40,757 nucleotides of DNA from Methanobacteriaceae archaeon (GTDB lineage Archaea > Methanobacteriota > Methanobacteria > Methanobacteriales > Methanobacteriaceae): the NCBI GenBank assembly GCA_003558085.1, contig PWMT01000071.1, positions 1-40,757 of the forward strand. Direction: 5' to 3'. The notes under the pieces are model-generated. The model saw only the letters and a program-made list of their open reading frames with translations, was not told the DNA's origin and ran no database searches. The translations under genes were made by a program, and so were the position numbers. Shown piece by piece: positions 4,039 to 39,790 of this stretch. Position 1 is the first letter of the stretch. Each line of letters begins with the position of its first letter.

Positions 4039-4434
4039 TTATTTTTCAGGGGGCTTATAAGCACCATCCTCATCATGTATCTCATCACCTACTAAGGGCG
4101 GGTTGAATACACAGAGTAACCTTAAATCTTGATCATAGGCTCGGAGATAATGACGGTCATGTTTATCTAATGCATACATAGTACCTGGTTTTATGGGATA
4201 AATTTTTCCATCTTTTGTGGTTTCTATTTCTCCTTCCCCCTCCACACAGTATACTGCTTCTAAATGATATTTGTACCAAATTAAGGTTTCGGTATTGGCA
4301 AAGATAATGGTTTCATGTAAAGAAAAGCCCATGTTCTCTTCTTGTGTTAGAAAACGCTTGCTGACCCAGTTATTATTTTCAGCGAAAACTTCACGGTCTG
4401 TTCCTTCAATATCATTTATTGTTCGCACTATCAT
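4039..4434 (-). CDS. ectC: L-ectoine synthase
   Basis: MIVRT start, MGFSLHET, WYKYHLEAVYCVEGEGE, PGTMYALDKHDRHYLRA, CVFNPPLVGDEIHDEDGAY. Confidence 0.96.
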   Translation of the reverse strand: MIVRTINDIEGTDREVFAENNNWVSKRFLTQEENMGFSLHETIIFANTETLIWYKYHLEAVYCVEGEGEIETTKDGKIYPIKPGTMYALDKHDRHYLRAYDQDLRLLCVFNPPLVGDEIHDEDGAYKPPEK

Positions 4435-5707
4435 TATTTAAACCTTCAATCATTGCTTCTCTTTTTTCCTGCACAGCTTCGATGGAATCTTCTATGATCT
4501 GCAGACCATCCTCTAAAATTTCATTTTCGGTGGTTAGCGGAGGTAATAATTTAAGTACATCATCTTCTGCTCCAGCTAGTTCAATGAGTAAACCTCTGGA
4601 AAATGCTTCTTCGGATACATCACTGCAAAATCCTCGATAAGGTATTTTAAGTCCGTTTATTAAACCTTTACCACGTACCTCAGATTCTAGGGAAGTAAAT
4701 TTCTCAGAAATTTCCATTAATCTGTTTTCAACCAGTTGTGATTTGTTCTGCACCGCCTCCGATAAGTTATCGTTTTCCCAGTAACTTAAAAGTTCTCGGG
4801 ATGCTACAAAGGCCAGATTATTTCCCCGAAATGTACCGGTGTGTTCTCCTGGTTTCCACTGATCTAATTCCCCTTTAAGTAAAACCATGGATAGGGGTAA
4901 ACCTCCTCCGATTGATTTAGAAAGGGTGATCACATCAGGATTAATACCAGAGCTTTCAAAACTGAAGAAAGTTCCAGTTCGACCATTCCCTACCTGTATG
5001 TCATCTACTACCAAGAGTATGTCAAAATCCCGGCAAATCTGTTCGATATCCTGTAACCATTTATCACTGGCTACGTTAATACCTCCTTCAGCCTGAATAC
5101 ATTCCAATATTATAGCTGCAGGTAAGTCCACTCCACTACTTTGATCTTCTAAAAAAGTTCTAAGATATTCAGCAGTGTTTACTTCTTCTCCTAAGTAGCC
5201 ATCAAAAGGCACGAAACTTACATTAGAACGATTTATGAAAGCTTCATCCCGATAGAATGAATTAGCAGTTACCGCCATGGAGCCCATAGTTAATCCATGA
5301 AAAGCATTAGTAAAAGCAATAACATTGGATCTTCCTTTAACCATTCTCACCAATTTTAAGGCAGATTCTACGGCATTGGTACCAGTAGGTCCAGTGAATT
5401 GAATTTTGTATTCCATGTGCCGGGGCTGGAGAATGGTTTCATAGAATTTTTCCAGAAATAATTTTTTAGCTTTGGTGGCCTTATCCAGACCATGGACTAT
5501 ACCATCATTTTTTATGTATTCTATAAGTGCTTTGGATACTAGAGGATTATTATGTCCATAATTTAAGGTTCCTGCACCGGCAAAAAAATCAATATATTCG
5601 TTGTCTTGTTCATCACATAGAATAGATCCCTTAGCCTTATCAAAAATTGCGGGGAAACTTCTAACGTAACTGCGTACTTGAGATTCATGTTCTTTAAAGG
5701 TTTTCAT
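4412..5707 (-). CDS. ectB: Diaminobutyrate--2-oxoglutarate transaminase
   Basis: ESQVRSYVRSFP, DFFAGAGTLNYGHNN, GPTGTNAVESALK, DDIQVGNGRTG, WKPGEHTGTFRGNN; 23 bp overlap with ectC. Confidence 0.95.
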   Translation of the reverse strand: MKTFKEHESQVRSYVRSFPAIFDKAKGSILCDEQDNEYIDFFAGAGTLNYGHNNPLVSKALIEYIKNDGIVHGLDKATKAKKLFLEKFYETILQPRHMEYKIQFTGPTGTNAVESALKLVRMVKGRSNVIAFTNAFHGLTMGSMAVTANSFYRDEAFINRSNVSFVPFDGYLGEEVNTAEYLRTFLEDQSSGVDLPAAIILECIQAEGGINVASDKWLQDIEQICRDFDILLVVDDIQVGNGRTGTFFSFESSGINPDVITLSKSIGGGLPLSMVLLKGELDQWKPGEHTGTFRGNNLAFVASRELLSYWENDNLSEAVQNKSQLVENRLMEISEKFTSLESEVRGKGLINGLKIPYRGFCSDVSEEAFSRGLLIELAGAEDDVLKLLPPLTTENEILEDGLQIIEDSIEAVQEKREAMIEGLNNDSANNK

Positions 5708-5726
5708 CTAATCACTCATATTATAA

Positions 5727-5759
5727 ACAACGGTGTAGGGGAAACCCTGCACCGGTTGT
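5727..5759. other. GC-rich intergenic hairpin between ectA and ectB
   Basis: ACAACGGTGTAGGG-GAAA-CCCTGCACCGGTTGT, 14 pairs with one bulge. Confidence 0.65.
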
Positions 5760-5777
5760 GAATTTCATTTAATATAA

Positions 5778-6287
5778 TTAATCAATCTTTAATTTTCTAA
5801 GGGGCCCTATACGGATCAATAGTTCTTCTTCATGATCAGTATCACCAAATAGGTCACTAGTTAAAAACTCTGATTCTTTCAGGTTCGCATCATATTGGGT
5901 GGCTAGTTTGTTAAATAGAGACATGGATGCATTATTGGATGGTGTTATAGTAGTTTCTAAGAATCTTATAGTTTTAAGTTTTTCCCTTTCAATTATATCT
6001 TGTAATAATTGCATGGCTAATCCTTTACCCTGCATGGATGCATCTACTGCTACCTGCCAGATAAAAAGAACGTCCTTTTGATGGGGTTTTATGTAAGCTG
6101 ATACATACCCCACAATCTTTTTATCAAATTCAGCCACTACACTGGTGTTATCAAAATGAGCACATATAAGTAAATAACTATATAATGAATTAACATCCAG
6201 AGGAGGTGAATTTAATACTAACTGGTAGATACCATAGCCATCATCTAATTTTGGTTTCCTGATATTAATCGAATTATTTTTCATCAT
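5778..6287 (-). CDS. ectA: Diaminobutyrate acetyltransferase
   Basis: PPLDVNSLYSYLL, LFIWQVAV, GKGLA, LETTITPSNNAS..LF, HEEE.L.RIGP. Confidence 0.94.
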   Translation of the reverse strand: MMKNNSINIRKPKLDDGYGIYQLVLNSPPLDVNSLYSYLLICAHFDNTSVVAEFDKKIVGYVSAYIKPHQKDVLFIWQVAVDASMQGKGLAMQLLQDIIEREKLKTIRFLETTITPSNNASMSLFNKLATQYDANLKESEFLTSDLFGDTDHEEELLIRIGPLRKLKID

Positions 6288-6765: not shown

Positions 6766-7227
6766 GTGAAATGGCAGAATATTTTAGTTATATTATTTAT
6801 TGCAGGATTAGTTTTTATTGCAGGATGTGTTGGTCCACAATCAGTAACTATAGAGGAACTAGAGGAAAATCCAAACCAATACCTGGATAAAACAGTAACC
6901 CTGGAAGTAAGGGTGGCCTTGGCTGATACACAATATCACCAATTCTATCCTCAAGTTCCAGAAGGCGCGGTACAGGGTACACATCTATGGTTATATAATC
7001 CTGAATATGGAACTAGTTTCAATACAGTGGAAAGAACAAATGAAGTTTCTGCCTGGTATAAGGGGAATTTAACTGAAGATCCACTTAACGACCTTAGTGG
7101 TAAAGAGGTCAAGATCATTGGAGAATTTATAAGAAATCCAATTATCCAATCCCAAGACCAGTACTGGAAATACTGGCCAGCTGCAGAGTTGGTTATTCTA
7201 ATTGAAGAATTGGAGATCATAGCTTAA
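6766..7227 (+). CDS. Hypothetical lipoprotein (possible OB-fold)
   Basis: GGAGG RBS; signal peptide ending IAGC; 'VTIEELEENPNQYLDKTVTL' and 'GKEVKIIGEF' are OB-fold-like. Confidence 0.7.
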   Translation: MKWQNILVILFIAGLVFIAGCVGPQSVTIEELEENPNQYLDKTVTLEVRVALADTQYHQFYPQVPEGAVQGTHLWLYNPEYGTSFNTVERTNEVSAWYKGNLTEDPLNDLSGKEVKIIGEFIRNPIIQSQDQYWKYWPAAELVILIEELEIIA

Positions 7228-7607
7228 AAAAAAATATATTCTCTAATAAAATTAGACCTATATTTTTATAATTTTTCAAAAAAAAAGGTTATAACATGAT
7301 CAACTTTTATATTTAAACTTCAAATTAATTTTAGCTTAAGTAATTAAATAAAAGCAATATTTATTTGTTGTTTCATAGCCAAAAAATCTTTAATCATCAC
7401 TATTAAAGGCACGCTGGTGTTAATATAGTTTAGTTTTCTTTTAAAATTAATATCGAATTTGAAAAATAGACTCTACAACTTAATATATGATTATCACCGT
7501 ATAGTATTTGAACTTAATAATTTTTTAAAGCTGATATTTATATTAAAGCTTACAATTCTCAATTTAAAAAACTAGAATATTTAATTTTTGCTTTTATTAA
7601 TTTATTT

Positions 7608-7720
7608 GAGGTCGGGATTTCGGCCTTTTTGTTTATAAAAATTTTTTAGGCTGTTTTCTATTTATAATTCCGCTTTTTTCCCGACCTCTTTGGAGGAGAT
7701 AAAATATCGCTTTATCTCAT
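7608..7720 (-). ncRNA. Candidate structured small RNA (AUCUCCUCCAAA motif family)
   Basis: 8 bp hairpin 7696-7718, TTTGGAGGAGAT at 7689-7700, perfect 10 bp stem 7608-7617/7679-7688; BRE/TATA-like CGATATATTTATTAA ~25 nt upstream on the minus strand; no ORF. Confidence 0.5.
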
Positions 7721-7885
7721 TTAATATATATTGTAACTATTGATTAATAAATATATCGCTAAAAGTGTTAATAATCAAGTACACAAAATTATTACACAAA
7801 AAGTGAAATAAAATGGAAATAATGTGAATTTTTTCTTTTAAAAAAAAATAGGTTTTAGTTAATAAAACCAAACAAACTAATAAGT

Positions 7886-8189
7886 TTATTCCACTGGTAT
7901 GGGTCTTGCTTTTTTAATTTCTACAATCGGTGCTTTAATAGTTAAAATTTTATTCTCAAAAGATGGCTTTACTTCTTTCATCGTCAACATCATCTGCCAG
8001 CACCCAGCATCGACTAAAAGAAATGTCTTCTCTAGGAGCTCTAAAAAATATGGTATTTTCTGCTATTTTAATTTCAATATATTCTTTTTTGACTCCTGGA
8101 ATCTCAGATATCAGTATATAATCTTCATTAGTATGATAAAAATTAGCAGCAGGAGCTACTACTATTTTACGGGCTCTTTTCTCAACCAT
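7886..8189 (-). pseudogene. Small Hsp20/alpha-crystallin protein with a +1 frameshift
   Basis: EIPGVKKEYIEI motif; removing one base from the run at 7958-7961 restores FENKILTIKAP...RPIPVE*, the canonical beta-9 strand and IxI/V tail. Confidence 0.8.
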
Positions 8190-8465
8190 AAATACACCAC
8201 CATCTTTTTAATATGTTATTATACATGTTCAAAAAATATATTCAAATATTTCTCTAATACCTTATTTTAAAAAAATAACAGTTATTAAAGTTTAATTTTA
8301 TCTAAATTTAGCATAAAGTCTATATAAAAATTTTAGAATGCCTCAAATCTGTTTAAAATAAAAATAGAATTATCTTAAATAAACTAAGAGGTAATCTTAA
8401 AAATAAAATTTTAAAACTAATAAAATTTAATAACTAAAAATTAACTTACATTTCCCATCACAGGA

Positions 8466-8696
8466 TTATTCCTTTTCCACCCAGTTTCCGGATTCATCTT
8501 TAGTATAAGTTTGTTTTACAGCAGACCATGCCACTTTATGGGATACTTCTTCCTGTGATTGATTACCTCTACGTTTATCAGGATCTTTATATTGTTCCCA
8601 AGCATTATTAAATGCTTTTAAATATATTTCTTGGGCAGGTTTAGGTAAATTTTTTTTAATTTGCTCTGGTAACTCTTTTAAATTATTATATGGCAA
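8466..8696 (-). CDS. chaB: ChaB family protein
   Basis: (M)PY...LP..AQEIY.KAFNNAWEQY...AWSAVK..Y.K...W; TTG start at 8696 after GGGGTGA gives the typical MPY N-terminus. Confidence 0.88.
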   Translation of the reverse strand: MPYNNLKELPEQIKKNLPKPAQEIYLKAFNNAWEQYKDPDKRRGNQSQEEVSHKVAWSAVKQTYTKDESGNWVEKE

Positions 8697-8932
8697 GTTG
8701 ATCACCCCTCTTAAATCTTTAAATGTATAATAATTTATCTTTTTATAACTATTTTAAATCTCCAATTATCATTTTTTTATCTAAACCATTTTATTTTCAA
8801 CCTAAATATGCTTAGTTTCCCGAGAAGATTAATGATCACCATCACCGCTTAGCTAAAAATTTATCTACTTTTTTCAACAAACAATATATCATAGCCTATC
8901 ACAGTGAATTAGATTAAAGGGAGGAAATTTTA

Positions 8933-9097
8933 ATGTATCAAATAGATTATGTAGAATATGAAGGAACCCATCAGAATTTTGTAGAGACCATCAATGAATT
9001 AGCTAGAGGCGGATGGAGACCAGTATGGACTACTCTAAAAGTGCATAAAACAGCAGATGAAATATTGTTCGCCTTATTTATCGAAAAAATTGAATAA
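8933..9097 (+). CDS. Small hypothetical protein, 54 aa (absent from ORF track)
   Basis: GGGAGG RBS then MYQIDYVEYEGTHQNFVETINELARGGWRPVWTTLKVHKTADEILFALFIEKIE; 'INELARGGWRPV' resembles DUF4177-type motifs. Confidence 0.7.
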   Translation: MYQIDYVEYEGTHQNFVETINELARGGWRPVWTTLKVHKTADEILFALFIEKIE

Positions 9098-9108
9098 AAA
9101 GTGAAACA

Positions 9109-9285
9109 ATGAAAGCTAAAGCTTTTCTAGAAAAACTGAATACCTTTTTAGATGAGTCTGAAGAAAAAGCAGAATTAGAAGAATTAGAATTAGTATTTGT
9201 AACCCCAGAAAATATCTACTGGAAATTAGACGATATAAAAATAATTGAAGATAAAATGGCCTTTATACTCATTGAAGGAGAATAA
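9109..9285 (+). CDS. Small acidic hypothetical protein, 58 aa (absent from ORF track)
   Basis: 11 bp after the previous stop, AAGTGA RBS-like site; MKAKAFLEKLNTFLDES...FILIEGE*. Confidence 0.65.
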   Translation: MKAKAFLEKLNTFLDESEEKAELEELELVFVTPENIYWKLDDIKIIEDKMAFILIEGE

Positions 9286-9443
9286 ATTAAAAAGACTAGC
9301 TAAATTAAAATATTAGCTACAAGAATAACAACAGAAAATCTTTGAATTGGAATTTAAATTTCTAATATGCTATTAAGGTAATCAACTATAATATTAATAG
9401 TTTAACTTAAAAAACAGGTTATATTATAGTGGAGGGTGAGAAT

Positions 9444-9695
9444 ATGGCTACTGATTTGAGACTATCTGATTATTTAACTAAAAATGAGTTAAAATGGGTA
9501 GCACTTCGTTTAAATACCGTGGGTAAAGGCGAACTAAGCCAAAAAGTTAAAGAATATCTAAAACTTCAAGAAGATGACTTTGAAGGAGCATATCTAAGAG
9601 AACTGGAAAAAGAAGACATCGAGGTTAAACAGATAATAGGATTATCTAAAAAATATAATTTAATCCCGCCTCAGGAAAAGGAGCAAAAAGATTAA
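9444..9695 (+). CDS. Hypothetical protein
   Basis: GAGGGTGA RBS favours ATG at 9444; charged helical sequence. Confidence 0.65.
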   Translation: MATDLRLSDYLTKNELKWVALRLNTVGKGELSQKVKEYLKLQEDDFEGAYLRELEKEDIEVKQIIGLSKKYNLIPPQEKEQKD

Positions 9696-9753
9696 AAAAA
9701 CAGTTTTTGTATATTAATTATCTTTTAGGACATAGCAGAATTAGAGAAAAAAT

Positions 9754-10251
9754 TTAAAGTTTCAACTGCCTTATAATTTCAGTATAAAATATTTTATTTT
9801 TTCTTTTAACTTCTTTGAATCCATGTTTTTCATACACTATTTGAGCTTCCTTTTCATTTCGATCATCAGAAGTATAAAGTCGCAGATAATCCACGTTCAT
9901 ATTTTTTGCCTCTTTTATCGTATGTGTAAGTAATTTTTTACCTATTCCTTTTCCTCTCTCTTCAGGGGCCACGCAGTACCAGAATAGCCACACAGCTTCA
10001 TCTTCATCTCGCCAATAATTATAAAGCCCTGTAGTTCCAACCACCTGATCATGTTCATTTACAGCCACCCAGATATCAATAATATCTTTAATTCCAAATA
10101 AATTCATTATTTTATCTATCAAATTGTTATCCTGATGGGTCATAGCAATTAAAGTAAATTGTTCAGATATACTTCTATATGGAAACACTCTTTTTACCAA
10201 ATTTTTTGCTTCTAGAAGAGTTTCTTCTGTAGCTGATATAATTTTCACCAT
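9754..10251 (-). CDS. GNAT family N-acetyltransferase
   Basis: CVAPEERGKGIGKKLL acetyl-CoA motif; YEKHGFK. Confidence 0.88.
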   Translation of the reverse strand: MVKIISATEETLLEAKNLVKRVFPYRSISEQFTLIAMTHQDNNLIDKIMNLFGIKDIIDIWVAVNEHDQVVGTTGLYNYWRDEDEAVWLFWYCVAPEERGKGIGKKLLTHTIKEAKNMNVDYLRLYTSDDRNEKEAQIVYEKHGFKEVKRKNKIFYTEIIRQLKL

Positions 10252-10544
10252 TATAAAAAAATCCCTCTCTTTAATAACTTATATAGTAAAATAGTTAGAC
10301 ACAAAGTCATTTTTTTAAGTGGATATTGAATAGGTACTAACTAAAAATTATCATAGTTAAATGAAATAGAGCAGCTATTTGAAGTCATAAATAATTAGTG
10401 TTATAATTTTTTATTTTTTATCTTCTCAGTATAATATTTTTCAAAAGCTATTATAATAAGTATACCTCAAAAAAAAAATAAGGTTATAATGCGATTTAAA
10501 TCAAGTTAGACTCAACATCATAAATAAATAAAGAAAAAAAGGTT

Positions 10545-10760
10545 TTATTTTCTTTTAGGAAAGATCAAACCAGCCAGCACCAACATTAAAGATAAAAACA
10601 GGTAGGCTAATGGTAAACCAGTGCTTTTCATAGTAATAGTTTTCTGCTGCAACATCCACATCGTCTGGAATTACTGGTTCAATCGTTTTTCTCTAATCCG
10701 TAACTGGCCAGTTAGTACTTGATGGTCTGCAGTAACTTGGAGAGCGGAACATAAAGAATC
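10545..10760 (-). pseudogene. C-terminal remnant of a Methanobacterium-type cell-surface/adhesin-like protein
   Basis: TITMKSTGLPLAYLFLSLMLVLAGLIFPKRK* (MxxTG-LP motif, TM helix, basic tail); upstream frame broken by frameshifts. Confidence 0.7.
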
Positions 10761-10937
10761 TTTTATAGAAATAAATTTTTTTTAGAGCTAATTTGTAAAA
10801 AATAAGGATATTTTAAGGATATAATTTATACTGAAATTTTTAAAACTTAGAAATTTATTTTATAATTTTTAGGTTACATATATTCCATTATAAAGATTAA
10901 TGAATATCATTAAAAATTAAGATTATTACTAGAATTT

Positions 10938-11323
10938 AGATAAAGTTATCCTATTATGTTGAATAATAGTCCTATTTTATCAGTTTAATATAGCCCATTT
11001 GATTTAAATTCAGTAATTTCCCTGATTTTAATTAAAGCTATCCTTGAACTTCGTTAAACTATCCTATTGTTTACCTCATGGTCGTTATATTTTTAGGGTT
11101 TCCTCAGATTGCAGATTGAAAATTATTATTCAAAATTATATTATCAAGATTAATATTATTTTTAAGTAAAATTTTAAAAAATTAAGGTTTTTAGTAGATT
11201 AAGATAAAGTTATCCTATTATGTTGAATACTAGCCCTATTTTATCGGTTTAATATAGACCATTTAGTTTAAATTCATTAATTTCTCTGGTTTTTAATTGA
11301 AATTATGGTGAACTTCGTTAAAC
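10938..11323. repeat. 122 bp imperfect direct repeat (10938-11059 and 11202-11323)
   Basis: First 28 nt (AGATAAAGTTATCCTATTATGTTGAATA) and last 15 nt (TGAACTTCGTTAAAC) identical; copies 264 bp apart; no ORF found. Confidence 0.85.
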
Positions 11324-11830
11324 ATTTCTATAACGAAGATAATTTTTTTAGAAATCCTATTAATTATAATCACATATTAATTTTTTAGTTAATATAGGAG
11401 TTACAAATATAGTGGCAGTATCAGTTTAAATAATGAATGGATGGAAGTATTAGAAAGGATAGCTTACTAAAATTAGATTTTAAACTCATATTAGTAACTT
11501 TAGTGAAAATCATGCTATTGTTAAGGTTTTAATGCCCTAAAACATCCGGAACATATCTTACAGGGCATATTTTTTTTTAGTATATAAATTTAGACAATTT
11601 TTACTAAATCTTTCTTTACAAAAAATACCCGCTTTTGGTACAATCCATATCTATTATTTAGGTCTAATTTGTTATGCTTTTTATAAATTAAATATTACTT
11701 ATTAGGGTAGTGTTCACTACATGGTCGTTATAAATAAAAATTTTAAAATTCATGAGAATAAATCTGGCTGGGGATATTTACAGTGTAAAAATATTGTAGA
11801 TTAAATTTTGCTGGAAGACTATTCATTTAG

Positions 11831-12181
11831 TTAAGGGGTCAAATAGATGCTTATGCGGGCATCATCTAATTCTCCAACAGATGGAACAGAGGTATTCTGG
11901 GTATTAATTGTTTCATCTCCTCTTATCAAAGATATAGTCAGTGTTTCATTGCTGGGTTCCGTTTTTTCAACTATAATTCTCAGACTACCTGTAATGCTGC
12001 CTAAATCAATTGTTTCATCACCAGTACCTTCAATTGTGCGAGTTCCAGATGAATCAGTTATGGTACCGTTCCAGCCATCAGTATAATTTACAACCAATTT
12101 TACATTTGAAGTTACACATCCAGATATTGCAACTACCAAAAAAACTAATATTAATAAGATTATTCCAATTTTTTTTGACAA
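11831..12181 (-). CDS. Hypothetical lipoprotein
   Basis: AGGTG RBS then TTG at 12181; signal KKIGIILLILVFLVVAISGC; beta-rich body. Confidence 0.7.
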   Translation of the reverse strand: MSKKIGIILLILVFLVVAISGCVTSNVKLVVNYTDGWNGTITDSSGTRTIEGTGDETIDLGSITGSLRIIVEKTEPSNETLTISLIRGDETINTQNTSVPSVGELDDARISIYLTP

Positions 12182-12682
12182 TTTTATGCACCTTTTAAAC
12201 ACATTCATTTTCAGAATATATTAAATTATCCATTTAATAAGTCACAGAATTTCTCTTTTAATAAAAATTATATGTAACACCTTTTAAACCAGGAAATTAA
12301 AAATATCATCTATCAGCTAATATTATTAAATTCAATGGGAAGTATTTGTACTATTAACTAAGCTTTTGATATACAAATGGCATCAAATGTAATAAGATTT
12401 GTAAGATGTTACTTGGTACTATTTCCAGTATCATAATACTCTTTACTCCTATATTATGGGATTAACACATAATTTTTTTCTAAAATATAACGAATATGAT
12501 TTTTTTTAAAAAATCATTTTCAATATTAATTAAATGTAAATTTTTAGTTTATATGGAATTACATTTTTACAGTAGCACCTAAAAATGTAAAAGGCTTTAA
12601 TCATCAATATATAAATTGAAAATCTTTAATATAGGTGTATTTTCTCAAAAATCACTATTAAAAACTTAGGGAGGATTAACTA

Positions 12683-13109
12683 ATGGATCATGTTGTTTAT
12701 GTAGATGCAAAGGCAAAAGAAATGGATAATCTAATTGAAGGAAATAAAAAAATGATTATTAGGGGTGCTGCAGGAAGAAAAATGCCATATGGAAGAGTTA
12801 ATGCTGCTGATATTTTTTATTTTATAAATAACGATGCTGAAGGTATAGTTAAAGCAACTGGTAGAGTTTCCAGTGTTTATAACTCTAAAAAGATGTCTGA
12901 AGAAGAATCAACTCAATTAATTGAAAAAAATCAGGATGAATTACAATTAAATAACCAACAATTTAAGCGCTGGGCTGGAAAAAGATACTTAGTTTTACTA
13001 GAATTAAAAAAATGTTGAAACCATTGATCCATTTTCCATTGACCGTAGTGAATATGGAAATATGGATGACTGGTTACCAGTAAAAGATATCAATTCGGTG
13101 AAGAAATGA
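12683..13109 (+). pseudogene. ASCH/PUA-like hypothetical protein with a +1 frameshift
   Basis: GGGAGG RBS; G.K.MIIRG...GRV..DI.YF pattern; removing one A from 13006-13012 adds KNVETIDPFSIDRSEYGNMDDWLPVKDINSVKK*. Confidence 0.65.
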
Positions 13110-13299
13110 ATGCATCAGTTTCCTTTTCTAAAATACGAGATTGGATATTTTTTTAGATTATTTTTTAGTCAGTTTTCGCCATTTTGATTCTAAGTTATAA
13201 ACTCCTTCTCGTTTTAGTGATTATTCCCTGACCATAGATAAGTTGCCGGCCATTTTTTGAAGAACCAAAACATAGTATATCATAATTTTATGCTAATTG

Positions 13300-14079
13300 C
13301 TAATCCGACTGAATAAATTTTAGGACTTCCTCTGTAAAGAGGTCTGGAGCCGTTGTAATTGCATCATGTGCCTGGCCTTCAAGTTTTGTAATCATGCTTT
13401 TAGGAAGTGATTTATCAAGCATTTTTGTTGCCTTTTTATCGGACAAACGACTTTCGCTTCCGTATAACAACATAGTGGGGATGTTCAGGTCTTTAAACCG
13501 CGTAGACTCAAACTTGTATTCTGTTTCGGCTTTCATCTCACGGGGCAGTGTAGGAGTCGCATTCACCAACACATTCCAGTATGGTGTTTGGCGATACATG
13601 TCAACTTCATTGGATGGAATGCCGACCACTTTTTCCAGGAAGAATAAAAGGGCCTGCTCATTTCCATCTTCTCTTAATATGCTTTCGATTTTAGCAATGG
13701 TTTCTGGTTCATCAGCCCCGTAAATCCCCTGTGGTTCGTAGAGGATGAGTTTACTTAGATTTTTTGTTCGAAGCGCCGCTTCCAGTGAAATGAGTCCACC
13801 GCCGGAATGGCCAAGAAGGATCACTGGCTCTTCAATCATATCTAAAACTGCTACAACATCATCGATCTCCAATTCAAGCTTGTAATCGGCAGCATCACCA
13901 CTTTTACCGCGACCTCGGCGATCTATTGTATAAACTGTGAAGTATTTAGCCAGTGTGGGTAGGACCATCTTCCAGTGAGTATGATCAGCTGTGTCTCCAT
14001 GGACAAGAACCAGAGGTGGTCCTTCTCCTGTTTTCTCATAAGCAATTAAAGTACCATCTGATGATTTAAGTTTCTTCAT
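13300..14079 (-). CDS. Alpha/beta fold hydrolase
   Basis: SSDGTLIAY, PPLVLVHG, DRRGRGKSG, GHSGGG nucleophile elbow, C-terminal GQAH. Confidence 0.9.
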   Translation of the reverse strand: MKKLKSSDGTLIAYEKTGEGPPLVLVHGDTADHTHWKMVLPTLAKYFTVYTIDRRGRGKSGDAADYKLELEIDDVVAVLDMIEEPVILLGHSGGGLISLEAALRTKNLSKLILYEPQGIYGADEPETIAKIESILREDGNEQALLFFLEKVVGIPSNEVDMYRQTPYWNVLVNATPTLPREMKAETEYKFESTRFKDLNIPTMLLYGSESRLSDKKATKMLDKSLPKSMITKLEGQAHDAITTAPDLFTEEVLKFIQSD

Positions 14080-14202
14080 AATATAAAAATCTCCCATTTT
14101 TAGGTTTACAAGGTTAGCGATTAGGATTTACCGGCTGGATCCTTAAGTCCCATTTAAAATAGGTACAATGATGGTAGCAAAAAATGAAATATTTTAAGCT
14201 AA

Positions 14203-14598
14203 TCAAAATATTCTTTTAGCATCTCTAATTATTTGAGCTACTTTAGAATCAATTGCATTTCGATTAGGGTTCCCTACTTCATCTCTCCAATAAATACTGT
14301 ACCATCGGTCATTTAATTCAAAAAGATATTCTGCTCCGATTCTATTAAATTAAAGCTTTATATATTCCTTAAAATAGACAGAAAGTCCGTTTATAATAGT
14401 TTCACCGTAATCAATCATTTTGTATCCTACTTTTTCATATGATGTTGTGGAAATTCTGCTTTTTGCTTTTTCTATATTTAAACGCAAATCCATCCGTCCC
14501 AATCCGGATAAATCTCCTAAATATACAATAAAATCTTTTTGAGCAAATTGCCTTATCCATTCAACCCTTTCTCTCCTGTGGGTTGTGTATACTGAACT
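14203..14598 (-). pseudogene. Degraded hypothetical gene
   Basis: 132-codon protein-like frame (..QKDFIVYLGD..YFKEYIKL*FNRIGAEYLFELNDRWYSIYW..KRIF*) with internal TAA at 14350-14352 and a broken 5' end. Confidence 0.5.
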
Positions 14599-14953
14599 TT
14601 ACTTTGGTTCTTCATTTGCTTTTACAAAGTGAAGATGTCTCACCTGCAGTACCACTATTTAAACTGGACATATTTTAGTGGTACAATAACCAATATCCAT
14701 TTTTTAAATCTTTACTTTAGATTAATCCTAGAATACTTAAAAGGATTACAACGAATATTATTACTATAATCCAGTACAAAATGCCTCTCATAATTTCACT
14801 TCCTCACATCCAGATATTATTTAATTAATCCTGGAAAGGTCAGACTATTTTCGAATTTTAAGGGGTTATTGAAAATTTAAAGAGAAAATTGTTTCAGTTT
14901 AGATTTGATTTTTCTTAATTCTCTGGCTTTTTCTTTTAGTTTTTTAGAATTTA

Positions 14954-15760
14954 TTATTCAATATCTACTTTAGTTATATCTTCTGTTACTTTAGGGAGAG
15001 TAATAGTCAGTTTACATTCTTCGTATTTAGCTTTGGCTTCTTTAACATTAATTTTCGTAGAAAGATTTATAGTTCTATTTGCTTTGCCATAAATTCTCTC
15101 TTTTTGAATGAATTCAGCATCTTCAATTTCAGGTTCTTTTTTAAACTTTGCACTTATTTCTACCCTATTTTTTGAAATGCCAATATCTATATCATCTTTT
15201 TTAACACCAGGAATGTCGACTATTAATGTGATTGTAGTGTTGGTTTCTAAAACATCGACTAAAGGTTTAGATTTTACGGGTTGAGTTTTTGTGTAATCAG
15301 ATATTACCTCATCTACTTGCACTTGCCCTTCCTTTAATTTAGATACTAGCTCGTTAAAAAATTTTTCTGCAGGAGTAATTCCTTCTTTTTTACTTTCTTT
15401 TTCAAATTTTGCTTTCTGCTCTTCAAGTTCTTTTTTAAATTCACCCCATTTTTCCTCTAGATCTTCTTCTTCTTTAACTTCCTCTATCTTGCTGCTTACA
15501 TCTTCTTTCATTTCTTTAGCAGATTCCTTCGTTTCTTCCACTTTTTTCTCAACATCACCTTTAGTTTCTTTAGCAGATTCCTTCGTTTCTTCCACTTTTT
15601 TCTCAACATCACCTTTAGTTTCTTTAGCAGATTTCTTCGCCTCGTCCACTTTATCCTTTACCTCTTCTTTTCTTTCTTCACTCAAATCTTTTCCTTTTTC
15701 AACTTTTTTATGGGTTTTCTTTTTAATTTCATCGGTTGATTCAGATATATCATTTCTCAT
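14954..15760 (-). CDS. Hsp20/alpha-crystallin protein with a long N-terminal LEA-like charged repeat region
   Basis: C-terminal PLVDVLE..DIPGVKKDDIDI..ER.YG..AKYEE.KLTITLPK..VDIE; about 150 N-terminal aa K/E-rich. Confidence 0.88.
   Translation of the reverse strand: MRNDISESTDEIKKKTHKKVEKGKDLSEERKEEVKDKVDEAKKSAKETKGDVEKKVEETKESAKETKGDVEKKVEETKESAKEMKEDVSSKIEEVKEEEDLEEKWGEFKKELEEQKAKFEKESKKEGITPAEKFFNELVSKLKEGQVQVDEVISDYTKTQPVKSKPLVDVLETNTTITLIVDIPGVKKDDIDIGISKNRVEISAKFKKEPEIEDAEFIQKERIYGKANRTINLSTKINVKEAKAKYEECKLTITLPKVTEDITKVDIE
15511..15633. repeat. Perfect 54 bp tandem repeat (2.3 copies) encoding AKETKGDVEKKVEETKES
   Basis: 15511-15564 identical to 15565-15618, plus a 15 nt third start. 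Confidence 0.95.
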
Positions 15761-15833
15761 TTAAATCACCATTTTAAATGAATCTGACGAGAATTTAAGA
15801 ATCTGAAAAAAAAAATAATTTAAAATTAAATTA

Positions 15834-16073
15834 TTATTCTTTCTTTAAAGGTGTGCCTTTGATTAGAACATTATCACCAATAGATTCAATCATTTCATAG
15901 GACACTATTTTATGATCACCTAGTCCAATTTTTGCAGATATCCCTGCTTCTTTTAAAATAATTGATTTTACGGTGTTATTTTCAAAATCCCATTCAACGT
16001 CATCAACTAATCCTATTTGATCTCCAGATTCATCTACAACATCTTTTCCAAGTAATTCATCTGCTATTTTCAT
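15834..16073 (-). CDS. PRC-barrel domain protein
   Basis: ELLGKDVVDESGDQIG.VDDVE.D...IESIGDNVLI. Confidence 0.88.
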   Translation of the reverse strand: MKIADELLGKDVVDESGDQIGLVDDVEWDFENNTVKSIILKEAGISAKIGLGDHKIVSYEMIESIGDNVLIKGTPLKKE

Positions 16074-16082
16074 TTTTACCAA

Positions 16083-16246
16083 CTCCAAATTAACAAATAC
16101 AATTTTTATTTAGGCTAAGTAGGAAAAAAAATTATAAAAGCCATGGAGGTGTCTTCCATCATTTTTTCCCTTAGCCTAAATTTTTTTTGGAGGAGATTAC
16201 AGGAGTTCGCGAAAACTCCTATAAAATTCAATGACTCTCCTCAAAA
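16083..16246 (-). promoter_or_regulatory. Structured leader RNA candidate, copy A, upstream of the PRC-barrel gene
   Basis: Hairpin AUAGGAGUU/AACUCCUGU, AUCUCCUCCAAA, 11 bp stem 16109-16119/16170-16180; repeated at 16574-16646. Confidence 0.6.
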
Positions 16247-16258
16247 TTATTCTATCTT

Positions 16259-16432
16259 TTAAGTTCTGCCGTTTATGGCCTGATTCTTTGCTCTTATAAA
16301 ATCAAAAGGATCTCTAAAACCACCGAAAGGCTGAAATTCACATCCACATTCCGGGCATGGTTGGGCTTCTGTTCCCGGTTGGATATTAGGACATTTCCTA
16401 TTAGGACAACGCCAAATATTCAATGATACCAT
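16259..16432 (-). CDS. Small zinc-ribbon-like protein
   Basis: WRCPNRKC...PCPECG; GGGAGA RBS; start at 16432 or 16444. Confidence 0.65.
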   Translation of the reverse strand: MVSLNIWRCPNRKCPNIQPGTEAQPCPECGCEFQPFGGFRDPFDFIRAKNQAINGRT

Positions 16433-16442
16433 TTTTTTAAAC

Positions 16443-16820
16443 ATCTCCCTTAACTATTCATTATTTTAAGAGGCTAAGGAAAAAAAAAATAGTCATAAAA
16501 AAGACTTGAGGCAGTCTCTACCATACCCTCCCTTTTTTGGTTTTGGAGAGAAAATGGATTATTTAGTTAATATTTTTTTCCCTTAGCCTAAATTTTTTTT
16601 TTTGGAGGAGATTACAGGAGTCCGTGAAAACTCCTATAAAAATTCATTTTTTTTAGGTAAGTTAAACTTAAAAGTATAATTTTAAGCTAAAACGAGACTT
16701 AACCTAACCTAAAACCTAACTTAGACTAAATATCTGCCATAAAAAAATTAGAATAAAAAATAGTTGCTTGTGGAGCATTTTTTTTTATCTTTTTTTTGTA
16801 GATATAATTGAGATGACTCG
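16443..16820 (-). promoter_or_regulatory. Long structured leader, copy B, upstream of the zinc-ribbon gene
   Basis: TTTATATA box near 16846-16853; stems 16471-16479/16581-16589, 16614-16637 and about 16653-16711; G-U pairs favour the minus strand. Confidence 0.55.
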
Positions 16821-16940
16821 TTAACTAATACTATATCCTGCCTAGTATATAAAGTGATCGATAAGCTTCCAAATATAAAAATAAGGTAAAACAGCCTAAA
16901 TTAAATATAAATGCTTTAAAATATAAGGTTTAACAATATA

Positions 16941-17200
16941 TAACCAAATCATATTTGAATTTACCATAATAACATAAAAAATAATACGAATAACCAACAA
17001 TAAGCAAACCATCATTTAAATTACCATTATAACAGTAAAAATAAAAGATATTTCAAAAAATAAGCAAACCATCACTTAATTTTTCTTTATAATAGAAATA
17101 ATATAAGAGATTTCAAATAATAAGCAAAACATCACTTAATTTACCCTTTATAATAGAAATAATATAAGAGATTTCAAATAATAATCAAAATCATTTAATT
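16941..17200. repeat. 60 bp-period degenerate tandem array (4.3 units)
   Basis: Units start at 16941, 17001, 17061, 17121, 17182 with core TAAGCAAACCATCA(C/T)TTAA. Confidence 0.85.
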
Positions 17201-17602
17201 TATGATGAAAAAGCAAGAAAGAAGGTTATTCCAGGAAAAACCAGGGAACACCCACGGGATGTTTATTTTAATGCTATGAAAAATGCAGTGGATGTTTTTG
17301 GAGATAATCAGGTTAGTTCCTGGATTTTAATGGGATTGGAACCTCCTGAGAAGACCATTGAGGGTATCCGAAAAATAGCTGAAACTGGAGCCATACCCCT
17401 CCCCAAACCATTTCGCCCTTTATTTGGTTCTGACTATGAAACAAGAAAACCATCCACAGTAAAAGATGCAGAGTTAATCTATACTGAGTGGTTTGAGACC
17501 ATCAAAGGATGTGGATTGAATCCTCTAAAAGCAAAGGCTGGTTGTGTAAGGTGTAATGCCTGCTTTCCCATCCGTGAATTATGGAAATTTGGTATAGATT
17601 AA
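17192..17602 (+). pseudogene. C-terminal fragment of an MSMEG_0568-like radical SAM protein
   Basis: IPGK..AVDVFG.NQVSS.ILMGL..PFRP..G..KAGCVRCNAC; in-frame stop at 17165; no CxxxCxxC motif. Confidence 0.7.
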
Positions 17603-18353: not shown

Positions 18354-18554
18354 CTATGTTTCTTTGGTTTTTTCTTTTATTTTACTTTCTGCTTTTTTAA
18401 CTTCCCCTTTAAGTTCTTCAGCTTTACCTTTTAATTTACCTTTAAGTTCTTCAGTTTTACCACTAACTTCTCCTTTCTTTTCCTTGGCCTTACCTTTTAC
18501 TTCACCCTCTTTTTCCTTGGCCTTACCCTTCAATTCAGCAGTCTTCTCAACCAT
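18354..18554 (-). CDS. Small LEA/CsbD-like hydrophilic repeat protein
   Basis: GGGAGA RBS; 11-residue periodic (E.KGKA.E..G) K/E/G-rich sequence. Confidence 0.75.
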   Translation of the reverse strand: MVEKTAELKGKAKEKEGEVKGKAKEKKGEVSGKTEELKGKLKGKAEELKGEVKKAESKIKEKTKET

Positions 18555-39633: not shown

Positions 39634-39790
39634 ATAGTCACCTCTTATATTTTTAGTCAATGCAGATACCGCTATTGGTTTTCTAAAAGCTCTTTACCAG
39701 TAACTGAAAAAAGTGTAATCATTCTCAGATTATTTTTTCAGTCTGGTTTTCTTTTGGAGATTTAGACGGGCAATGGTCTTAATTATAATC

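Follow-up and report, generated by a model that had tools for sequence, protein, structure and literature searches.

A stand-alone relative of structured leader RNAs in a Methanobacteriaceae archaeon: a candidate trans-acting RNA with an anti-Shine-Dalgarno-like tract

The stretch of DNA analyzed here (40,757 nucleotides from a Methanobacteriaceae archaeon, referred to as the window) contains two structured leaders near 16 kb that share the 12-mer AUCUCCUCCAAA. The same 12-mer recurs on the minus strand in a gene-less element at 7566–7760, which we call copy C. The original prediction proposed that copy C is a stand-alone member of the leader family encoding a small RNA of ~150 nt, which could pair with GGAGG ribosome-binding sites (RBSs) or titrate whatever binds the leaders. 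The locus raises two questions: whether the resemblance to the leaders is real and, if so, whether copy C is a working RNA or the remains of a leader that has lost its gene. To our knowledge, very few regulatory RNAs of methanogens have a known mechanism, and the copy C element was not described in the literature that we searched.

Architecture of copy C

Read along the minus strand, copy C comprises the following parts:
7758–7744, minus strand: BRE/TATA-like box CGATATATTTATTAA, read from the sequence
7718–7696, minus strand: P1 hairpin, GAGAUAAAG / loop CGAUA / UUUUAUCUC, 9 bp, the last a G-U pair
7700–7689, minus strand: 12-mer AUCUCCUCCAAA, exact match
7688–7679 with 7617–7608, minus strand: P2 stem GAGGUCGGGA/UCCCGACCUC, a perfect 10 bp with 7 G-C pairs
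7682–7674, minus strand: 9-mer GGGAAAAAA, read from the sequence
7641–7637, minus strand: T5 run within the P2 loop
7571–7566, minus strand: T6 run, candidate archaeal termination signal

Every part named in the original prediction was present, namely the 12-mer, the hairpin, the CUCC tract, the perfect 10-bp stem, the BRE/TATA-like box ~25 nt upstream, the T6 run, and the lack of an ORF. P1 appeared in both the minimum-energy and the centroid structures, and the descriptor scan returned it as nine contiguous pairs. The first five bases of the 12-mer sit in the 3' arm of P1, and both predicted folds left the tract CUCCAAA (7695–7689) unpaired in the segment between P1 and P2. The loop closed by P2 is 61 nt long and A/U-rich. 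With this layout, P1 and P2 would serve as clamps that hold CUCCAAA single-stranded between them.

Oligo-T runs terminate transcription in archaea. The TATA-like box, whose 3' end is placed 25 nt before the start of P1, predicts a transcript start at about 7725–7718; with the T6 run as its end, the predicted RNA would measure ~155–160 nt. Most likely, the TATA-like box would serve copy C as its own promoter and drive a non-coding transcript of ~85–160 nt, ending at T5 or T6. We found no minus-strand ORF of at least 30 aa within 7566–7736. Rfam 15 gave no match at the gathering score in the whole window and none at E ≤ 5 over 7000–17000, and the searches for tRNA or tmRNA found none.

Copy C is linked to the 16-kb leaders beyond chance

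The two leaders near 16 kb are the following:
16465–16640, minus strand: copy A, leader of a 61-aa Zn-ribbon gene, with a P1 of 12 bp, a free motif, and a P2 of at least 17 bp
16107–16225, minus strand: copy B, intergenic leader of a PRC-barrel gene, with P1 and P2 as in copy A

Copy B is placed between the 61-aa gene and the 84-aa PRC-barrel gene, which is followed by a T10 run and then by a 268-aa Hsp20. The 61-aa four-cysteine protein downstream of copy A had no match in Pfam or NCBIfam. An 85%-identical duplicate of copy A, copy A2, lies on another contig (C103) along with a paralogous gene. We also observed a tandem array of about four 60-nt units (16918–17202) just upstream of the copy A promoter region, and long T runs on the minus strand inside P2 before its 3' arm (T6 and T10 at 16480–16502 in copy A, T8 at 16124–16131 in copy B). 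Situated ahead of the coding regions, these T runs may cause premature termination and so yield short RNAs with a free motif.

The source genome assembly comprises 1.86 Mb at 35% G+C. In the window, the 12-mer with at most one mismatch occurred four times against 0.40 expected, and none of 100 shuffles reached four. Genome-wide, the exact 12-mer was not common: there were seven sites, against none in the backwards control, and both stems were present at four of the seven (A, A2, B, and C). Of the remaining three sites, one is antisense within a frame of 734 codons, another falls inside a frame of 314 codons, and the third sits at the very beginning of a frame of 1063 codons.

The fold of 7722–7566 had a predicted energy of −30.5 kcal/mol (z −3.73), and none of 200 dinucleotide shuffles was as good. 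When mononucleotide shuffles were used, copy C scored z −5.0, whereas the lowest value among 150 ORF-free windows sampled from the 1117 of its own genome was −4.7, and only one of these 150 reached z ≤ −3.5.

A pattern consisting of the 12-mer, a spacer of 4–22 nt, and GGGAAAAAA matched four sites in the source genome, which were exactly A, A2, B, and C, and all four carried a P1 of at least 9 bp and a P2 of at least 10 bp. Elsewhere the pattern was found in 20 stretches of species-representative genomes and 40 of a metagenome collection, and not one of these 60 sites had even P1 ≥ 7 together with P2 ≥ 9. By our own arithmetic, ~20 hits per 596 Gb for the 21 specified bases correspond to ~6e-5 expected in a genome of this size. 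The presence of the stems at 4/4 own sites against 0/60 outside sites indicates that copy C is a real relative of the 16-kb leaders and is linked to them beyond chance. These data bear out the original prediction that copy C repeats the design of the leaders with different stems.

The layout is not identical in all copies. The spacing from the 12-mer to GGGAAAAAA is 6 nt in copy C versus 15–19 nt in A, A2, and B; P1 is 9 bp rather than 12 bp long, and its 3' arm overlaps the motif by 5 nt rather than by 1 nt.

A chance resemblance in an AT-rich genome, with neither common origin nor function, is very improbable in our view. Such an explanation could draw on the loose architecture (P1 ≥ 6, P2 ≥ 9), which was as common in the reversed genome (146 of 2433 cores) as in the real one (140 of 2816), with no enrichment, and on the covariance models described below, which do not link copy C with A or B. 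The strict descriptor (P1 ≥ 9, P2 ≥ 10) was satisfied by 11 of 2816 real cores and by 4 of 2433 reversed ones; at arbitrary sites it matched 932 of 235,044, or 16 of 235,044 when P2 had to be as G+C-rich as that of copy C. Against chance stand the 21 shared bases with their low expectation, the lack of stems at the 60 outside sites, and the fold of copy C as an outlier among the ORF-free windows of its own genome.

A lineage-restricted family with a diverged member

Beyond A, A2, and B, we found a further copy in the source genome and two in a sister species. Copy D (C77:15675–15784, minus strand; locus L046) is 81% identical to copy B; it has lost the 12-mer, its stems are mismatched, and it is gene-less. 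The sequence flanking it upstream shows homology to the corresponding flank of copy A. The existence of this decaying, gene-less copy indicates that orphaned leaders do arise in this genome. In the sister species G003, the orthologous small gene is preceded by two tandem copies (G3a and G3b). The P2 arms of these copies have other sequences than those of copy A yet still pair (GGGUCAGGAAA/UUUCCUGACCU versus GGCUAAGGGAAA/UUUCCUUAGCC), and P1 pairing is kept through U-G and G-U wobbles, which suggests a maintained RNA structure rather than a DNA palindrome. The motif is changed in both G003 copies.

We searched for further members with two single-copy covariance models, R1 built from copy B and R2 from copy C. 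Besides A, A2, and D, R1 recovered the first of the two G003 copies, with no convincing match elsewhere; at E ≤ 0.005, it matched 2 of 150 genomes of the family. Its matches in the sister species G001 and G002 (E 0.04 and 0.12) were rejected as members, as the sequence looks coding. The leader family was not found in G001 or G002, and where G001 encodes distant homologues of the small gene, these lack a leader of this kind. A family-wide 17-nt degenerate pattern allowing two mismatches gave noise outside the genus, with real counts about equal to the backwards control, and its 12 extra matches within the genus all fell in coding-looking sequence. A looser motif pattern revealed no new member in the four genus genomes; of its matches outside the known copies, the six closest to the 12-mer were folded, and all six look coding. 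A motif-like site on contig C131 was discarded because it lies inside a 378-aa ORF.

One possible loose relative was noted within the window:
39695–39783, minus strand: element E, a weak hairpin, AAAUCUCCAAAAG, and the stem ACCAGACUGAAAAAA/UUUUUUCAGUUACUGGU; R1 E 0.18

The stem of element E has A6/U6 ends, and the site is upstream of a znuA/znuC/znuB-like operon (read from ORFs). We rejected it as a conserved member, given that the orthologous znuA-like leaders in G001–G003 have a different long stem and no motif.

Copy C itself proved strongly diverged. In blastn comparisons with A and B, it showed no similarity beyond the 12-mer and the 9-mer, and its stems were wholly different. The original prediction also held that a covariance model built from the 16-kb copies should recover copy C. 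This expectation failed: R1, built from copy B alone, listed 38 matches at E ≤ 10 when run over the whole window without filters, but not one of them lies at 7566–7760. Conversely, R2 did not recover A, A2, or B. Neither blastn nor R2 detected a homologue of copy C in 40 relatives, where R2 gave three marginal matches (E 0.03–0.05), all without the motif and P2. That the two models do not find each other's locus and that the 40 relatives yielded no homologue counts against a working RNA. The promoter-proximal part (7756–7718) produced blastn matches of 83–87% over 34–39 nt in related genomes, and two of the five inspected lie shortly upstream of a Shine-Dalgarno (SD) sequence and ATG; because the sequence is AT-rich, these matches are weak evidence. 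In a genome of another genus (G009; loci L011 and L027), an element with a promoter-like box, a hairpin, and ~150 shared nt is repeated at least four times upstream of unrelated genes and is 77% identical over 56–64 nt to the promoter and first hairpin of copy C.

Changed stems combined with 21 identical specified bases form the pattern expected if a single-stranded motif is under selection. Judged by sequence and predicted fold, copy C has diverged but remains an intact paralogue within a structured RNA family that is restricted to this lineage and comprises A, A2, B, and the two tandem sister-species copies.

The motif resembles an anti-Shine-Dalgarno tract

To interpret the shared motif, we considered the hexamers enriched upstream of 1389 long ORFs. 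AGGAGG was present 54 times versus 4.5 expected, GAGGTG 32 times versus 2.7, and GGTGAT 59 times versus 6.6; AGGTGA was also enriched. In our reading, these hexamers assemble into an SD consensus whose complement would match all but one of the first nine bases of the motif. On the strength of this near-match, the motif looks like the SD-reading tail of the ribosome. The CUCCAAA tract of copy C is likewise complementary to SD-type hexamers enriched upstream of starts.

Whole-leader folds of A and A2 predicted pairing of AUCUCC(U) with the gene's own SD, GGGAGAU. The probability of an unpaired SD was 0.02 in A and 0.01 in A2, with ~5.7–5.8 expected motif-SD pairs at 37 °C, suggesting that the motif plausibly works as an anti-SD. 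This support is modest: the two leaders are paralogous and amount to a single observation, and sequestration as strong as theirs was seen in 6% of 160 start regions sampled from 254. The corresponding pairing was weak in copy B (2.0 expected pairs at 37 °C), and in G003 the motif of the first copy pairs with the second copy and not with the SD of the gene. The SD-pairing part of the motif in A and A2, AUCUC, is taken up by P1 in copy C, which leaves CUCCAAA free.

Two simple uses of the motif were set aside. An RNA thermometer does not fit, as the probability of an unpaired SD in A and A2 stays at 0.01–0.06, and the pairing thus closed, across 20–65 °C; copy C has no SD. A pseudoknot joining the motif to the interior of P2 (GGAGG in copy A) was also dismissed, the partner being absent from A2, B, and C when inspected by eye.

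Since the pairing in A and A2 is predicted to stay closed at 20–65 °C, its opening would need a trans factor. This leads to a reading in which copy C, rather than pairing with mRNAs, is a decoy that titrates a protein or RNA recognizing AUCUCCUCCAAA (and GGGAAAAAA) in the leaders and so tunes the stress operon. Copy C and the leaders share no sequence other than the identical 12-mer and 9-mer, in line with a decoy, and the genes downstream of the leaders encode Zn-ribbon and PRC-barrel proteins of unknown role. We consider this reading quite unlikely: no such factor is known or was identified, the spacing between the two shared blocks differs between copy C and the leaders, five motif bases are paired in copy C, and the motif is changed in the sister-species copies.

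Genomic neighborhood of copy C

Two features precede copy C on its strand:
7886–8189, minus strand: Hsp20-like gene, split by a frameshift into 7956–8189 (77 aa) and 7886–7993 (35 aa)
7848–7840, minus strand: T9 run between the Hsp20-like gene and copy C, from the sequence

The original prediction placed the element downstream of the other hsp20 of the window. An Hsp20-like gene does lie upstream of copy C, but it is split by the frameshift and scores below curated cut-offs: its match to the NCBIfam archaeal Hsp20 model (E 4.4e-8) is under the cut-off of that model, and Pfam gave no match at E ≤ 0.01. In BLASTP against the 268-aa Hsp20 of the window, it scored 3e-7. The split results from a one-base shift in a short A-rich stretch, so that the gene is either a pseudogene or the product of a homopolymer assembly error. 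The T9 run likely represents the end of the hsp20-like transcript, and its position ahead of copy C argues for an element that forms a unit of its own.

The window is rich in stress genes (4412–6287, 8466–8705, 14954–15760, and 18354–18554); these comprise ectB-/ectA-like genes (read from ORFs) and genes for ChaB, Hsp20, and a lysine- and glycine-rich repeat protein. The Hsp20 of the window has a YtxH-like, repeat-rich N-terminal half encoded by 54-nt repeats.

The locus around copy C is variable. The 6.7–9.3-kb region is not conserved in the three sister species G001–G003, and a 3-kb region at copy C matches sister species at its far end only. The next gene downstream is convergent, encodes 153 aa, and was found in 1 of 26 genomes, that of the source. 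Such a setting would suit an orphaned cis-leader whose gene was lost by recent rearrangement, leaving a functionless relic that has not yet decayed. Copy D is just such a gene-less copy, the adjoining hsp20-like gene is frameshifted, copy C has no detectable homologue, and every other intact member examined (A, A2, B, and G3a/G3b) precedes an SD and a gene.

The sequence downstream fits this explanation less well. The 380 nt that follow copy C contain no GGAG-type SD and no ORF, tblastn over 7228–7885 detected no trace of the Zn-ribbon, PRC-barrel, or Hsp20 proteins, and the same interval showed no paralogous DNA apart from chance AT-rich matches. With no gene remnant downstream, one must assume either an in-situ decay that spared the leader alone or a clean deletion. 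In addition, the stems of copy C are perfect and its 12-mer is untouched, in contrast to the recent orphan D, which is decayed and has already lost the motif; this contrast favors a working RNA. We regard the orphaned leader as a serious possibility, although a somewhat doubtful one.

Candidate targets of copy C

If copy C is expressed, its CUCCAAA tract could pair in trans with purine-rich RBSs and thereby block initiation, or it could compete for a factor that recognizes this motif in the leaders. We scanned 4892 candidate start regions for duplexes with copy C and obtained a mean of −10.0 kcal/mol (sd 3.2); the best duplex of the scan lies inside a coding frame. The complement of the 7-nt seed, UUUGGAG, is present at 35 putative start sites, which makes the target prediction unspecific. 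Of the originally predicted pairing with GGAGG RBSs, a predicted free tract complementary to SD hexamers stands.

A start region on contig C121 is complementary to 13 consecutive bases of copy C, with a duplex energy of −24.6 kcal/mol; the corresponding values for the PRC-barrel and Zn-ribbon start regions were −14.0 and −10.6 kcal/mol. This site (C121:922–960, plus strand; locus L196) belongs to a 1057-aa pseudomurein-binding, transglutaminase-like protein with an apparent ATT start 7 nt after GGAGG. All four genomes of the genus, G001 and G002 among them, conserve GGAGGAGAT followed by ATT TCG CGA, and only three extra U's in this region are specific to the source genome. The start region of this cell-wall protein would be the best candidate target of copy C. 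That its SD is also conserved in G001 and G002, two species in which we found no member of the RNA family, counts against a working RNA.

Discussion

Our results establish copy C as a relative of the 16-kb leaders. As to its function, we tentatively favor a working small RNA that acts via its exposed anti-SD tract, a reading that we hold to be plausible without calling it probable. The predicted ~150-nt RNA holds up insofar as a promoter-like box and oligo-T runs are positioned for a transcript of 85–160 nt. Trans action is nevertheless something that we infer and did not find, because an orphaned cis-leader would account for the same facts almost equally well.

Several known systems invite comparison. 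In bacterial RNA thermometers, such as ROSE and fourU, a pyrimidine tract sequesters the SD in the leaders of heat-shock genes. By contrast, the predicted SD pairing of A and A2 stays closed over 20–65 °C, copy C has no SD to sequester, and there is no sequence relation. In Listeria, the terminated riboswitches SreA and SreB, which have known ligands and targets, also act in trans. They illustrate how a freed or stand-alone cis-leader element can regulate other mRNAs by base pairing; in our case, the analysis revealed no ligand pocket, conservation, or target.

The two closest described cases come from methanogens. The intergenic RNAs sRNA154 and sRNA41 of Methanosarcina mazei are proposed to mask RBSs in the mRNAs that they target; anti-RBS sequences are found in sRNA154, and the sites masked by sRNA41 lie within operons (PMC5867862). 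Copy C resembles them as an intergenic element of a methanogen with putative RBS masking (PMC5867862). The expression of sRNA154 and sRNA41 was measured and targets were validated (PMC5867862), whereas the transcription, trans action, and targets of copy C are predictions. Copy C has no sequence or structural relation to either RNA. It is also a paralogue of cis-leaders, a relationship that is not described for sRNA154 or sRNA41 in that review (PMC5867862).

The Hsp20 gene of Methanolobus psychrophilus is described as having a 65-nt 5' UTR predicted to bury the RBS (PMC5378194), much as the A and A2 leaders are predicted to hide an RBS in a methanogen. The M. psychrophilus case depends on the use of alternative start sites at different temperatures, whereas A and A2 would rely on long-range pairing across a large inserted stem (PMC5378194). 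Moreover, A, A2, and B precede Zn-ribbon and PRC-barrel genes rather than hsp20 as in M. psychrophilus (PMC5378194), and copy C precedes no gene. In sequence, copy C is unrelated to the M. psychrophilus Hsp20 leader. In literature searches that were not aimed directly at this question, we came across no methanogen cis-leader that has a stand-alone paralogue.

Taken together, the leaders and copy C might make up a small archaeal circuit based on a mimic of the ribosome's anti-SD tail. The leaders would shut their own start sites, and copy C, with its motif held between clamps, would be a free competitor that either silences genes with extended GGAGGAGAU-type start sites (such as that of the pseudomurein-binding wall protein with its apparent AUU start) or sequesters the factor responsible for opening the leaders. 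We consider this scheme unlikely in its entirety. Were it true, a methanogen would possess a pair of paralogous riboregulators, one acting in cis and one in trans.

The family was found in only two genomes and copy C in one; even if real, the regulator would be lineage-specific and not a general principle. It would be linked to a neighborhood of stress genes (ectoine, Hsp20, and ChaB). If copy C is expressed and acts via its anti-SD tract, it would provide a compact, testable example of a leader element becoming a trans-acting regulator.
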